A stretch of 64,000 nucleotides of DNA, from positions 640,001-704,000 of the forward strand of contig CAVWLP010000002.1 in assembly GCA_963755915.1 (NCBI GenBank), given 5' to 3'. The DNA is from an uncultured Phycisphaerales bacterium (GTDB lineage Bacteria > Planctomycetota > Phycisphaerae > Tepidisphaerales > Tepidisphaeraceae). The stretch's first letter is position 1, and each line of letters starts with the position of its first letter. Both the position numbers and the translations under genes were made by a program. Positions 42,688-47,006 of this stretch are shown here, piece by piece. The notes below the pieces were generated by a model, which had not been told where the DNA came from, searched no databases, and saw only the letters and a list, made by a program, of their open reading frames with translations.

Positions 42688-42929
42688 GCGGGGATAGTAC
42701 CATGCGCGGAATGGAGGAACTGAAAGGAGGGAGCGGCTTCGAATTGGTGATGTGTATGTGAAGTTGCGCTCGGCAAGGGGCCGATTTTATCAAATTTTTT
42801 CTTGACCTTAAGGAACGCGGTCAGTATAAGTCGGCTCTGCGTCAGCAAGTTCGTGAAATGCGTCAACCGCCGGCGCACTCGGTGTGCGTTCCAATACTGT
42901 GAATCCAAGGGGTGAGATGGGAAGATGCG

Positions 42930-44390
42930 ATGACGGTAAAACTGCGCAAAGCGGTTCATTTAGGGCTGGGATTTGTTATTTCATTGTTATTCGCGAGCGG
43001 TTTGAGGGCGCAGTATATTGGTCCACCCCCAGGGGCACCGACGTATGAGTTGGTCGCGCTCAACGGATCTCAGGCCCCCGGTGAGCCCGCGGGCGTGGAT
43101 TACAATGGGTTTGGAAATCCGGCCTACTCGGGATCGGGAGTTTATGGGTTTGAGGCGGGGTTGACGGGGACGGGGATCACGTCCAGCGTGAACTCGGCGA
43201 TTTTCCTTGGGTCTCCCACAAGCCTTTTGCCGGCAGTGCAGAAGGGGGCGTCAGCGGCGGGAACGCCGGGCGACGTCTTTACGTTTTTGTCAGCGCCGGG
43301 GGTGGCGGCGAATAATAATTTCGCGTTTTTCGCAGAGATCGGCGGGGGAGATGTGGTGGGGACGACGAATTATTCGGGGCTATGGGGAGGGACGCCGGGG
43401 AATTTGAGCCTTCTGTTCCGCAAGGGGAGCCCGGCGGCGGGAACGAGCGGGGCGGCGTATTCGAGTTTTGGGGATCCCGTCATCAGCGACAATGGGCTGG
43501 TGGCGGCGGAAGTGAACCTGACGGGTGGGGATGTGAGCGGAAGCACGAACAACGCGGGGATCTATACGGCGACTTCGACGTCGGTAAACCTGATTGCGCG
43601 AAAGGGAAGTTCGGTGCCGGGACTGGGCTCCGATTTGTATGGGGGGCTGGGGGATCCAACGATCAGCCCGAATGGGATCGTAGCGTGGGAAGGGGCTTTG
43701 AGCGGCGGGGATGTTTCGGGGACGACGAATAACGCGGCGATTTTTACGGCTGTGCCGGCGAATCCAGTTACCGTTGCGGTGCGCAAGGGAGTGACGGTGG
43801 CCCCGGGCACGGTGGGTGGGGATGTGTTTTCGTTTCTGGGGGATCCAGATGTAAACGCCAGCGGGCAGATTGCGTTTTACGCGAATGTTACGGGCGGGGA
43901 TGCGGTGGCGGGCGTGAACGACGAGGGCGTCTGGGCGGGCCCGGCGGGTTCGCTGAGCCTGATCGCGCGGCGCGGCGAATCAGCCCCGGATACGCTCGAT
44001 ACGTTCAACAGTTTTCAGGATCCGATCATCGGTCCCGATGGGTCGACGGCATTCATCTCGACGCTGACCGGTTCGGACGTGGTGACCGGGACGGGCGGAA
44101 ACGATGTGGGATTGTTTGCGGGGACGGGGGATGATTTGCAACTAATCGTGCGCAAGGGAGAAAGCTTTGCGGTGGACCCTTCCAATCCCAACTCGGCGAT
44201 TGAAGATGTAGCCGGGATTGATCTGATCAACGACAGCAGCGGCGTGGTGGCGTATTACCTGGACTTCACGGATGGGTCGAGCGGGGAATATCTTTCTACG
44301 GTGCCGAGTGTTCCAGAGCCGGTGACGGGTATGGGAATGCTGGTCGGGGGGATGGTGTTGATGGGCCGGCGGAAGCGGGTTGGGGTCTGA
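42930..44390 (+). CDS. PEP-CTERM-anchored surface protein with about 7 tandem ~60-aa repeats (NxxGxxAF type)
   Basis: Signal peptide. Repeats of the form RKG..APG...F..P.I...G..AF. C-terminal VPEP + TM + RRKR. Confidence 0.85.
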   Translation: MTVKLRKAVHLGLGFVISLLFASGLRAQYIGPPPGAPTYELVALNGSQAPGEPAGVDYNGFGNPAYSGSGVYGFEAGLTGTGITSSVNSAIFLGSPTSLLPAVQKGASAAGTPGDVFTFLSAPGVAANNNFAFFAEIGGGDVVGTTNYSGLWGGTPGNLSLLFRKGSPAAGTSGAAYSSFGDPVISDNGLVAAEVNLTGGDVSGSTNNAGIYTATSTSVNLIARKGSSVPGLGSDLYGGLGDPTISPNGIVAWEGALSGGDVSGTTNNAAIFTAVPANPVTVAVRKGVTVAPGTVGGDVFSFLGDPDVNASGQIAFYANVTGGDAVAGVNDEGVWAGPAGSLSLIARRGESAPDTLDTFNSFQDPIIGPDGSTAFISTLTGSDVVTGTGGNDVGLFAGTGDDLQLIVRKGESFAVDPSNPNSAIEDVAGIDLINDSSGVVAYYLDFTDGSSGEYLSTVPSVPEPVTGMGMLVGGMVLMGRRKRVGV

Positions 44391-44468
44391 GTGGGCGAGC
44401 CGTCGGCGTTTGGGAATGCTGTCTGATTCGGGGGATGGAGTGAGATTTTTTGACCGCGAAGATTTTTT

Positions 44469-44485
44469 AACCGCCAAGAGCCAAG
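44469..44485. repeat. Left arm of the REP-like inverted repeat targeted by the IS (AACCGCCAAGAGCCAAG)
   Basis: Near reverse complement of the reconstructed empty site CTTGGCGTCTTGGCGGTT (44582-44592 joined to 46078-46084). Confidence 0.7.
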
Positions 44486-44607
44486 GAAGAGCTGGCATCG
44501 TGTATTTTGATGATCAGGGGCGGGGGTTCAGCGTGGGATGCACTTATCCAAGTGATTTGGGGATTTATATTTCTTGGCGCTCTTGGCGTCTTCTATGAGC
44601 CGAGCCT

Positions 44608-44613
44608 TGTCAA
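44608..44613 (-). promoter_or_regulatory. Outward-facing -35 hexamer TTGACA in the IS right end
   Basis: The minus strand reads TTGACA next to the sub-terminal IR, the expected position for an IS1111 circle-junction promoter. Confidence 0.5.
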
Positions 44614-44918
44614 GGGGCGTTGATCGCTCATGCGGTCGATTGGGTGAGCCTTCTATTCAGTGCTCTCGCCTGGCGGCGGGCCTATTCAACTGTACAAATG
44701 GCCAGCCCTATTCTTAGCGGCAAGCTTTGAAGCTTAAGACGCCAACCGGGGTCTGGCCTTGCTCATTCAACCTGCACGAACGCGTCAATTCCACTTCACT
44801 TCAACTCTACTCAATCCCCTGCACAGAAGACAACGGCTTTCTGACACGGTGTCTTCCGGAGGGGAGATACTCCATCGCCTGTACCGACTTGTCGGGACAG
44901 TCATCGCCTTTTCGATTT
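44610..44918 (-). ncRNA. Bridge RNA / seekRNA of the IS1111 element (boundaries approximate)
   Basis: Stem-internal loop-hairpin at 44700-44758 carrying two guides that match the insertion-site flanks. Further hairpins at 44816-44900. Confidence 0.8.
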
Positions 44919-45962
44919 TCAAGTGGCCGCCGTCAGCGATCGCTGGGGTTCTCTCCATCGGGTTCCGTCCCGCAGCATCGCCCACAGCTTCACCAGTAAT
45001 CTCCTGGCTACCGCAACAATCGCGATCTTCTTGCGCTTCTCGCTGTCACGTAGAACCCTCTCGTACACGTCCTTCATCCACGTATTGCGATGAACCCCCA
45101 GCCACGCCACCTCCACCAGCAACTCCCGCAGCAGCGCGTTGCCTGCCTTGCTGATCCGCCCCTGGCGATCGCTGTCGCCGCTCTGCCAGCGCCGCGGCGT
45201 CAGACCCACGTAACATCCCACCTGACGTGCATTCTTGAATCGCCTGGGATCATCAATGATCACCGCCACCGCCTCGCTCAGCCGCGGACCAACGCCGGGC
45301 ACCTCCTGCAATCGTTTCACCGCTTTGTTGGCCTGGCCCAACTCCTGAAGCTTGCTTTCGACAGTTTCGATCTGCTTCTCCAGGTGCTCCAGTTGCGCCA
45401 CCTCACAACCGATCTGAAACAGCCACAGATCTTCCGCCGATGCGGCCGCTGCTTCCTTCCTCATTTCCTCCAGTCGCGCTTTCGTCCACGCCTTGGTCGC
45501 CGAGGGCAAATACAAACCCTGCCGCTCGTAGATTGATCGGATCGAGTTCTTGAGCGCCGTGCGGCGATCCACCAGGCCGTGTCTGTATTCAATCAATGAA
45601 CGCCACTGCCGAACCGATGCCTTGGGCACGTGCACCGTCGGCAGCGAATCCATCTCCGACATCGCCGCCATCTTCAGCGCGTCTTTACGATCACTCTTCT
45701 CCTTCACCGTCTTCCAGCGCCAGCGTTCATCGTTGCCATTGGCCACCTGGACGGGAACATTGTTCCGCTCCGCCAGATCACAAACCCATCCTGCCGCCGG
45801 ACCGGCCTCGATGACCAGTCGATCCGGACGCACCCGCTCGAGTAGTTTTTGCACCTCGTGGGCATTGGTGCCGATCTTGCCGAACGTTCTTTCTCCACCG
45901 CCGGTGACATAATCCACAAAAACGCTCTTGTTCTTTCCCAGGTCCAAAGCGAGAATTCGCAT
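44919..45962 (-). CDS. IS110-family DEDD transposase/recombinase
   Basis: ILALDLGK, LVIEAG, KSDRKDA (D-E-D-D). VPGVGP, YVGLTPRRWQSG (catalytic Ser), GRISKAGN, AIVAVARRL. Intact frame, RBS AAAGGA. Confidence 0.95.
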   Translation of the reverse strand: MRILALDLGKNKSVFVDYVTGGGERTFGKIGTNAHEVQKLLERVRPDRLVIEAGPAAGWVCDLAERNNVPVQVANGNDERWRWKTVKEKSDRKDALKMAAMSEMDSLPTVHVPKASVRQWRSLIEYRHGLVDRRTALKNSIRSIYERQGLYLPSATKAWTKARLEEMRKEAAAASAEDLWLFQIGCEVAQLEHLEKQIETVESKLQELGQANKAVKRLQEVPGVGPRLSEAVAVIIDDPRRFKNARQVGCYVGLTPRRWQSGDSDRQGRISKAGNALLRELLVEVAWLGVHRNTWMKDVYERVLRDSEKRKKIAIVAVARRLLVKLWAMLRDGTRWREPQRSLTAAT

Positions 45963-46103
45963 TGCCGAGTCCTTTCTCAAAAAAGACGTTTGAGCGACCT
46001 ACGCGGTACGCTCGTTCATACTTGGGGCATTTTGACCCCGTTCACGTCCCGAGAAAGGCTCGGCTTCATAGTTTCTTGGCGGTTAGAAGCGTTTAGAGCA
46101 GTT

Positions 46104-47006
46104 TCATTTCTTCGCGTCATAGGCTGGGCTGGCTACATCTTCGATTAGGCCTGGTTGGGTGGGGCGCCAGGCGGTGTGGTGGCGGGTGATGGTGGAGGAG
46201 GAGGGATTTGACATGGCGGCGAAATGGGCGAACCAGCCGAAATGGGCCGCGGCCTCATCGGTCGATTTGCTGACCGTCTGGAGATTCAGGCGGCGGGCGA
46301 TGACGGCGGCGATGTCTCGGAAGGGGATGCCTTCCTCGGCGACGGCGTGAAATCTTTGTCCGGTGGTAAATCCTTTTTCGAGGATGAGGCGGTAGAGTTT
46401 CGCGGCGTCGAGGCGATGGACGGCGGGCCAGGGGTTGGTCCCGTCGGCGACATAGGCGGAGAGGCCTTTTTCGCGGGCGAGGGCGATGAGGTGGGGGACG
46501 AAGCCATGATCGCCCTGGCCGTGGACGGACGGGGGGAGGCGCAGGACGGAGACGTGGATGCCGCGGGCGGCGAGGGAGGCGGCGGCTTCTTCGGAGGCGA
46601 CGCGAGGGAGGGCGCTGGGGCCGGAGGGCGGGGCGTCTTCTTCGGTGGCGACTTTGCTGCCGGAGACGAGGCCGGTTCCGGAGGTGACGATCAGGGGACG
46701 TTGTGAGCCTTGGAGGGCGGAGCCAAGCGATTCAATTGCGCGGCGGTCGATTTCGCAGTTCTCCTTAAATTTCGTGAAATCGTGGATGAAAGCGGTGTGG
46801 ACGACGGCTTCGGAGGCGGCGGCGCCTTGGCGCAGGCTTTCGAGATTTTCGACGTCGCCGCGCTGGACTTTGGCGCCGGCGGCGGAGAGGGATTGGGCGG
46901 ATGAATCGCTGCGGGCGAGGCCGAGGACCTGGTGGCCGGCGGCGATTAGTTCCTTTACCACGGCTGAGCCGACGAAACCTGTTGCTCCAGTGACAAAAAC
47001 TCGCAT
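46104..47006 (-). CDS. Atypical SDR / NAD-dependent epimerase-dehydratase
   Basis: MRVFVTGATGFVGSAVV...VHTAFIHDF...WPAVHRLDAA. Confidence 0.9.
   Translation of the reverse strand: MRVFVTGATGFVGSAVVKELIAAGHQVLGLARSDSSAQSLSAAGAKVQRGDVENLESLRQGAAASEAVVHTAFIHDFTKFKENCEIDRRAIESLGSALQGSQRPLIVTSGTGLVSGSKVATEEDAPPSGPSALPRVASEEAAASLAARGIHVSVLRLPPSVHGQGDHGFVPHLIALAREKGLSAYVADGTNPWPAVHRLDAAKLYRLILEKGFTTGQRFHAVAEEGIPFRDIAAVIARRLNLQTVSKSTDEAAAHFGWFAHFAAMSNPSSSTITRHHTAWRPTQPGLIEDVASPAYDAKK

Follow-up and report, generated by a model that had tools for sequence, protein, structure and literature searches.

A predicted target-reading RNA hairpin downstream of an IS1111-type transposase in a planctomycete genome and a natural guide/target series among its relatives

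Insertion sequences of the IS1111 group are defined by subterminal inverted repeats and by a longer non-coding region 3' of the transposase gene (tnp) (PMC11187229, PMC11208160). In the account of Siddiquee et al. (2024; PMC11187229), the seekRNAs of the IS1111 elements ISEc11, ISPa11 and ISKpn4 come from the non-coding region downstream of tnp and carry a match to the target's top strand 5' of a match to the bottom strand, the two overlapping at the insertion point. The same account describes subterminal inverted repeats, transposases of ~340 aa with a GL-P----SG motif, a REP target for ISPa11 (REP targeting by this family has long been known) and natural retargeting in the pair ISEc11/ISXne4. 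The bridge RNA of IS621, a member of the IS110 group, is described as bearing internal-loop guides to both strands over a core dinucleotide and a second loop that reads the donor, and among the IS1111 elements of ISfinder the same study predicts bridge RNAs for 93.0% (Durrant et al. 2024; PMC11208160). A further point of comparison is provided by ISPpu9 and ISPpu10 of Pseudomonas putida, which reportedly occupy a fixed position of a REP palindrome and have AG conserved at both sides of the element (PMC12288879).

Here we describe an IS1111-type insertion sequence on the minus strand of the window, by which we mean the whole 64,000-nucleotide stretch of DNA that was analysed, and its relatives in other genomes. 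We consider it very probable that a hairpin encoded at 44700-44758, downstream of the transposase gene, is the target-reading part of an IS1111 guide RNA whose two guides would specify a repeat target. The element resembles the IS1111 seekRNA systems as described in PMC11187229 in each of the respects listed above, down to a REP-like target and a naturally retargeted sister element (G124), and differs from them in host lineage and target sequence; its retargeting, unlike that of ISEc11/ISXne4 in the same report, is a 9-bp hop inside one tandem-octamer repeat via 3 guide bases. With IS621 it shares the arrangement of internal-loop guides to both strands over a core dinucleotide, a recombinase with a homologous C-terminal domain (8wt6, 1.3e-16) and, putatively, a donor module. 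In contrast to IS621 as described in PMC11208160, its RNA would lie 3' rather than 5' of the gene, its 5' loop strand would read the top rather than the bottom strand (a mirror order), its core in the sense of the insertion sequence (IS sense) is AG rather than CT, and its donor module is not a simple two-guide loop. The fixed REP-palindrome position and the AG at both sides are also found in ISPpu9/ISPpu10, which according to PMC12288879 belong to the IS110 group and, unlike our element, are without subterminal inverted repeats and have their RNA upstream of tnp. Since the class has been known since 2024 and predictions cover 93.0% of ISfinder IS1111 elements, we regard the element as a new decoded member and not as a new mechanism. 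A literature search with IS1111 and Planctomyc* returned nothing on the subject among the matches listed (titles and abstracts); supplements of the 2024 papers may list relatives.

The ends of the insertion sequence were set by alignment with intact target sites, which gave a body of 1483 bp (44592-46074, minus strand), or 1485 bp including one copy of the core. The transposase/recombinase gene (44919-45962, minus strand) encodes 347 aa with Pfam matches to PF02371 (2e-24) and PF01548 (2.9e-10), that is, a DEDD, RuvC-like N-terminal domain and a PF02371 C-terminal domain, and scores 216.6 bits against the NCBIfam model NF033542 ('IS110 family RNA-guided transposase'; cut-off 140). Its motif residues are D7, E52, D91 and D94. 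The C-terminal domain aligns with those of ISCro4 (9t56, 3e-18) and IS621 (8wt6), and residues 253-262 (GLTPRRWQSG) fall over GLTPRRYESG of ISCro4 and fit the GL-P----S/TG motif. The subterminal inverted repeat, CTATGA(A)GCCGAGCC, has a right-end arm at 44593-44606 (CTATGAGCCGAGCC on the plus strand), which is kept in relatives, and a left-end arm at 46057-46071 (GGCTCGGCTTCATAG on the plus strand). The arms agree at 14/15 bp with one indel, a length within the IS1111 range of 7-17 bp, and are inset by 1 nt at the right end and 3 nt at the left end. Downstream of tnp the non-coding region measures about 327 nt, as against 112 nt upstream. In all features tested (domains, repeats, non-coding layout, the 347-aa length, which falls inside the 330-350 aa of the group, and site- and orientation-specific insertion) the element is a member of the IS1111 group. 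The original prediction had made the same assignment and had called the system class known; the family features agree with the first, and the class was indeed established in 2024.

At the two junctions, the core dinucleotide stands at 44590-44591 (right end) and 46075-46076 (left end), CT on the plus strand and AG in IS sense. Next to it lie the right target RT (44583-44589; ACGCCAA in IS sense, minus strand), the proposed target of guide 1, and the left target LT (46077-46082; CCGCCA in IS sense, minus strand), the proposed target of guide 2, both the same in 9/9 copies in the host genome.

The predicted target-binding hairpin of the seekRNA or bridge RNA (44700-44758, minus strand) begins 160 nt past the transposase stop. 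Read along the minus strand it runs GGCCAGACCCCGG-UUGGCGUCUU-AAGCUUCAAAGCUU-G-CCGCUAAGA-AUA-GGGCUGGCC, with an outer stem, an internal loop and an inner hairpin (AAGCUU(CA)AAGCUU, 44722-44735) that sits between both guides. Guide 1, the 5' loop strand (UUGGCGUCUU; 44736-44745, minus strand), is a 10/10 complement of core plus RT: read from 44745 to 44736 it equals the plus strand at 44583-44592, and in IS orientation its match to the top strand is 10/10 over A-AG-ACGCCAA. Guide 2, the 3' loop strand (CCGCUAAGA; 44712-44720, minus strand), has the sense of LT-AG-A and would pair with the bottom strand. Read from 44720 to 44712 it complements 46074-46082 with one G-U, and over CCGCCA-AG-A the match covers 9-10 nt with one or two G-U. 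When the 3' region was searched for complements to the 28-nt target, the best were guide 1 and guide 2. The coordinates and letters of the hairpin and its guides are exactly those of the original prediction, which had also given guide 1 its 10/10 match and guide 2 its match with a single G-U, both of which hold; the complement search likewise bears out its claim that the guides read opposite strands and both cover the core. Its TCTT core survives in part: TCTT is duplicated at the site, but the relatives place the crossover core at CT (AG in IS sense). Taken as a prediction from the letters, the hairpin is a target loop of the IS1111 kind, with opposite-strand guides overlapping at the core, an internal loop, covariation and the IS1111 guide order.

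The 59-mer hairpin folds at -28.1 kcal/mol (z -3.33; 1/200 shuffles equal), and the whole 3' region (about 326 nt) reaches z -4.39 with 0/100 shuffles equal. In the minimum-energy fold, guides 1 and 2 are partly paired with each other, a consequence of the tandem-repeat nature of the target. Relatives do not keep those pairs: in an RNAalifold analysis of five hairpins the guide-strand 'pairs' break and the stems covary, with compensatory changes in 5/6 distal outer-stem pairs and in 12/22 predicted pairs overall. Dinucleotide shuffles of the non-coding region reached the observed 18 Watson-Crick pairs in 8/3000 cases under a deliberately loose statistic (a top- and a bottom-strand guide, both touching the core, at most 45 nt apart). 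Chance is therefore unlikely for a single element, yet the result is not overwhelming, and we treat it as suggestive rather than conclusive. It is the copies and the relatives, and not single-element statistics, that settle the guide reading. An Rfam scan of 44300-46400 gave 4 chance-level matches (E 0.05-5.1), all under their gathering scores and none at the hairpin.

The host genome (G000) is a metagenome-assembled genome (MAG; 81% complete, 8% contamination) with nine copies of the insertion sequence. Over 1481 bp, seven match the window copy exactly and two depart from it by a single base each. Both changes fall in the transposase gene, and the 347-aa frame is open in 9/9 copies. Every copy is flanked by TTGGCGTCTT before and TCTTGGCGGTTA after the insertion point (plus strand), and beyond the repeat the sequences are unrelated to one another, which identifies the copies as nine separate events at a single type of site. 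All nine occupy one position of one 15-mer; insertion is site- and orientation-specific. In G000, 22 intact 15-mers remain (both strands), 3 of which are the opposite arm of an occupied repeat. The landing site is one arm of a REP-like palindrome consisting of three octamer units, an AT-rich loop and an inverted arm, and the outer part of the arm in the window, with octamer units TCTTGGCG, is split by the insertion sequence (44569-44591). Each guide sequence is itself present in the repeat, where one arm has TTGGCGTCTT and the other CCGCCAAGA.

The palindrome family is seen in the window at 44569-44591 and 46075-46085, as tandem octamers TCTTGGCG with three units per arm, and the octamer occurs 443 times in G000. 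The family is common to G000 and the sister genome G124 and hosts two differently guided variants of the insertion sequence. The window copy lies in an intergenic repeat between a 492-aa open reading frame (42912-44390) and a 300-aa open reading frame on the other strand (46104-47006). The 492-aa product ends in what we take to be a PEP-CTERM-like tail (..VPEPVTGMGMLVGGMVLMGRRKR).

The sister element in G124 (90% aa identity, 4 copies) provides a natural case of retargeting. Its guide 1 is UUGGCGCUCU, three bases changed from the UUGGCGUCUU of the window element, and its guide 2 is the same. Within the repeat used by the window element, the 4/4 G124 copies are displaced outward by one octamer unit (9 bp), to CGCCA-AG-AGCGCCAA, and guide 1 matches 10/10 in 3 copies, the fourth having a diverged flank. 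Each genome retains intact sites of both types (G000 22 and 22, G124 47 and 35), and the window element (9/9) and the G124 element (4/4) are each found at the site that matches their own guide 1. In a separate sample, one RNA-library contig combines the guide of the G124 type with a flank of that type. In G124 (L063) and a further element, G138 (L035), the core-pairing bases of guide 1 stand 1 nt nearer the inner hairpin than at 44736-44745 of the window and in the remaining relatives.

More distant relatives were sought in 141 genomes of the same order, 16 of which had homologues. Four element types carry the ends and the RNA scaffold of the window element, and a fifth (L092) came from another MAG; G037, whose contigs are without the hairpin, was left out of the guide tests. 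The G123 element (73% identity) is represented by 15 right ends, 14 of them with both flanks. These flanks read CAGGCC-AG-CCARC, and the guides GUUGGCUU and AGGCCAGA fit them in 14/14 both-flank copies. The predicted empty site, CAGGCCAGCCARC, occurs 29 times, compared with 0 for a reversed control. AG is the sole sequence common to both junctions in G123-type copies, and these junctions together with the empty sites narrow the core to AG. G138 (68% identity) has two copies. In one, AGCTAC-AG-GGACGAC is matched by the guides GUCGUCCCU and GCUACAGA; in the other, the right flank has diverged and matches poorly. The single copy of L092 (51% identity) has guides AAUUGAAC and GAAAAAGA that fit AAAA-AG-TTCAATT, a junction confirmed by three empty sites in the same genome. 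When the loop strands of the five elements were set against the five targets, the diagonal of the 5x5 matrix was the unique maximum (1/120 permutations). When guides were searched without constraint over the whole non-coding region and G-U was permitted, the cross-matrix was noisy and the best matches for G138 and L092 were spurious; structure-anchored tests were used instead.

A scan of metagenome contigs with a conserved 19-mer of the second module of the RNA (see below) found 23 loci. Six were set aside, four because they are without insertion sequence context (L123, L132, L134 and L135) and two because they end before its terminus (L125 and L133), and the 17 remaining elements plus the five decoded ones make a covariation set of 22 with about 16 right-target classes. 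For guide 1, the score was the longest stretch of the hairpin's 5' half that is exactly complementary to the right flank of the same element, with the core G counted. By this measure the own match is 4-10 nt long and at least 7 nt in 16/22 elements, whereas only 10/454 cross pairs (different right-target hexamer) reach 7 nt, mostly between near-related targets. The own exact match falls below 7 nt in the other 6/22: 4 nt in L127, 5 nt in L126, L118 and the G123 representative, and 6 nt in L119 and L124. Guide 2 was compared in a fixed register, as the six bases 5' of a constant AGA, and agrees with the own left flank at 4.87/6 positions on average (15 elements with a left flank), compared with 1.85/6 for 202 cross pairs; L128 fits its own left flank at 3/6 positions. 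Single-base co-changes are seen in both guides. In L128/L129, guide 1 and RT change together (CUACAACCUU/CUACGACCUU with GGTTGTA/GGTCGTA), and in L119/L124 guide 2 and LT change together (CAGGCC/CAGGCA in guide and target alike). The original prediction had offered the fold of the 3' region, the flanks of other copies and guide/target covariation as checks on its reading, and all three speak for it: the region is more stably folded than any of its 100 shuffles, the nine G000 copies share the guide-matching target halves, and the loop strands follow the flanks in the 22 scaffold-sharing elements.

Opposite the first core position, L092, L121 and L131 carry a mismatched base (A). A set of elements at 39-48% aa identity with other ends and another scaffold (L036-L042, L050, L052-L054 and L060) falls outside the decoded set. 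Among them, a distant IS1111-like group from other genera of the same order (L038-L042 and L052-L054) has the ends AACCCATGCAATCCCGC and GCGGGATTCATAG and an RNA scaffold with repeated UGAAUGAG-like motifs, and sits in a repeat between CCACAGCAAAG and TTGGTTGGTTAT.

We weighed the guide reading against an explanation in which the hairpin serves the transposase mRNA in a structural or regulatory capacity (as a 3' stabiliser, a processing site, a terminator or a protein-binding site) and the protein chooses the target. The hairpin is a stable one in the 3' UTR, followed by AUUUGU, and RNA-DNA pairing in this element is predicted from sequence matches, both of which such an explanation would accommodate. 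A protein-only code, however, leaves unexplained why a 3-base loop change accompanies a 9-bp shift when both sites are present in both genomes, and it does not account for base-for-base co-changes across 22 elements. In addition, a terminator-like site was not called, and an RNA requirement has been shown experimentally for IS1111 members according to PMC11187229. We judge this explanation very unlikely.

It is just as improbable, in our view, that the element is of the RNA-guided type and that its G000 copies are no longer mobile. A scan of the linear element for promoters and terminators called no complete sigma-70-like promoter and no terminator-like site, and the run contigs compared, in which rare forms drop out, contained no joints, circle junctions, empty-site alleles, or start or end pile-ups, and no loose ends besides two flank pieces (uncovered parts of the element in runs X5, X9 and X20 were not read as absence). 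These results would suit immobile copies, but the nine copies, at nine independent sites, differ by 0-1 bases across 1481 bp and all keep the 347-aa frame open, and this near-identity points to recent spread. A conserved TTGACA (44608-44613, minus strand; TTGAC is kept in relatives) stands in the right end at a distance of 16 nt from the core, with no clear -10 alongside, and it is possible that it serves as the -35 of a junction promoter formed upon circularisation. Contigs over the 3' region came from two RNA-library runs: one contig is identical to the window over 44755-44959 and another, of a G124-type relative and with the guide bases and flank of that relative, covers 44589-44787; such contigs indicate presence in the library rather than transcription or transcript ends.

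Least credible of all is an origin of the hairpin from the REP-like repeat, as a captured or degenerate piece whose identity to the flanks would reflect shared ancestry and not guide function. The repeat does contain both TTGGCGTCTT and CCGCCAAGA, and the minimum-energy fold does pair the two guides together, but the internal loop that holds the guide strings is enclosed by stems that are not related to the repeat. Relatives that share scaffold and ends insert elsewhere (CAGGCC-AG-CCARC, AGCTAC-AG-GGACGAC, AAAA-AG-TTCAATTGG and about 12 more), and these relatives carry their own target-matching strings at the same two loop positions.

The 3' non-coding region contains another strong hairpin, in a stretch of 58 bp at 44824-44879 that is 84-86% identical to the tail of an istB-like open reading frame of an IS21-type element with about 43 copies in G000. 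A similar hairpin follows the transposase stop in L037 (46% identity, another genus).

Between the target-binding hairpin and the right end lies a second conserved module (44638-44699, minus strand), putatively the donor-binding part of the RNA, which is kept in all relatives. It contains the strings ACAGUU (44693 to 44688) and AUAGAAG (44656 to 44650). AUAGAAG equals the last five nucleotides of the right end plus the core, and in L092 the module has AUAGGAG where the right end reads CATAGG-AG, one covarying base. These matches suggest that the module probably recognises the right end as the donor. For ACAGUU, agreement with the left end AACTAT is 5/6, and the string changes to AUAGUU in G124, L117 and L131 with the DNA end unchanged. 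Since the left-end guide reaches only 5/6 without covariation, we term the module a putative donor reader only. Many IS1111 elements reportedly seem to carry donor-binding bases in a multi-loop (PMC11208160). Two other candidates were rejected. The 9 nt at RNA position 92 that complement the right end belong to an unrelated hairpin and were attributed to chance, and the motif CAGUUGAAU, which could pair with the right flank of L092 (9 Watson-Crick plus 2 G-U), was considered a coincidence because it is invariant across elements with other targets.

The guide reading suggests the following course of events. The RNA would be made within the 3' untranslated region of the transposase transcript and would probably be processed from it. 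Guide 1 would pair with the top strand and the 3' loop strand with the bottom strand over CCGCCA-AG-A, so that both guides would overlap the AG core, and strand exchange would take place at AG (CT on the plus strand, 44590-44591 and 46075-46076). Through this pairing the element would enter the REP-like palindrome in one orientation, between octamer units two and three, and the second module at 44638-44699 would probably supply the donor side by reading the right end. The guides also match both junctions of an inserted copy, which would fit a role in excision. In G123 the guides match the junctions of an inserted copy over one base more than they match the empty site, which fits the report that correct flanks are needed on the donor (PMC11187229). 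In using the labels 'intact' and 'RNA-guided' for the window element we infer the RNA species, its binding and the chemistry of the reaction; the anatomy of the element, its site specificity and the covariation of guide and target are seen directly.

A broader reading, which we offer tentatively and which as a whole seems to us somewhat doubtful, is that in this clade one RNA scaffold has been naturally reprogrammed in series, with at least 16 target classes spread over 22 elements, and that these elements, from Planctomycetota MAGs and from soil and peat-type metagenomes, display targeting rules of IS1111 not yet worked out experimentally. Within this joint reading, the alignments of guides and flanks suggest an AG core; a 3' guide in a fixed register that covers 5-6 nt of the left target, AG and A; and a 5' guide of 7-10 nt whose register may slip by one base. 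They further suggest that G-U pairs are tolerated and that a mismatch is permitted opposite the first core position. The donor side of the same reading suggests that the RNA reads the donor only at the right-end side (AUAGAAG) and that the protein reads the subterminal repeats, and the comparison with G124 suggests that a 3-base guide edit suffices for a 9-bp hop within one repeat.

Overall, the window element is a recombinase, RNA-guided by our reading, from a poorly studied phylum that could be decoded from sequence with respect to target, core, guides and scaffold. Additional value lies in the series of natural guide/target pairs on one scaffold and in the 9-bp hop within one repeat. Such a series is what design rules for IS1111 systems need; these systems, of which less is known than of IS621, attract interest as compact programmable tools for DNA insertion. 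For genome annotation, the guide reading would explain why the element is restricted to one repeat family, and it predicts 22 next landing sites.
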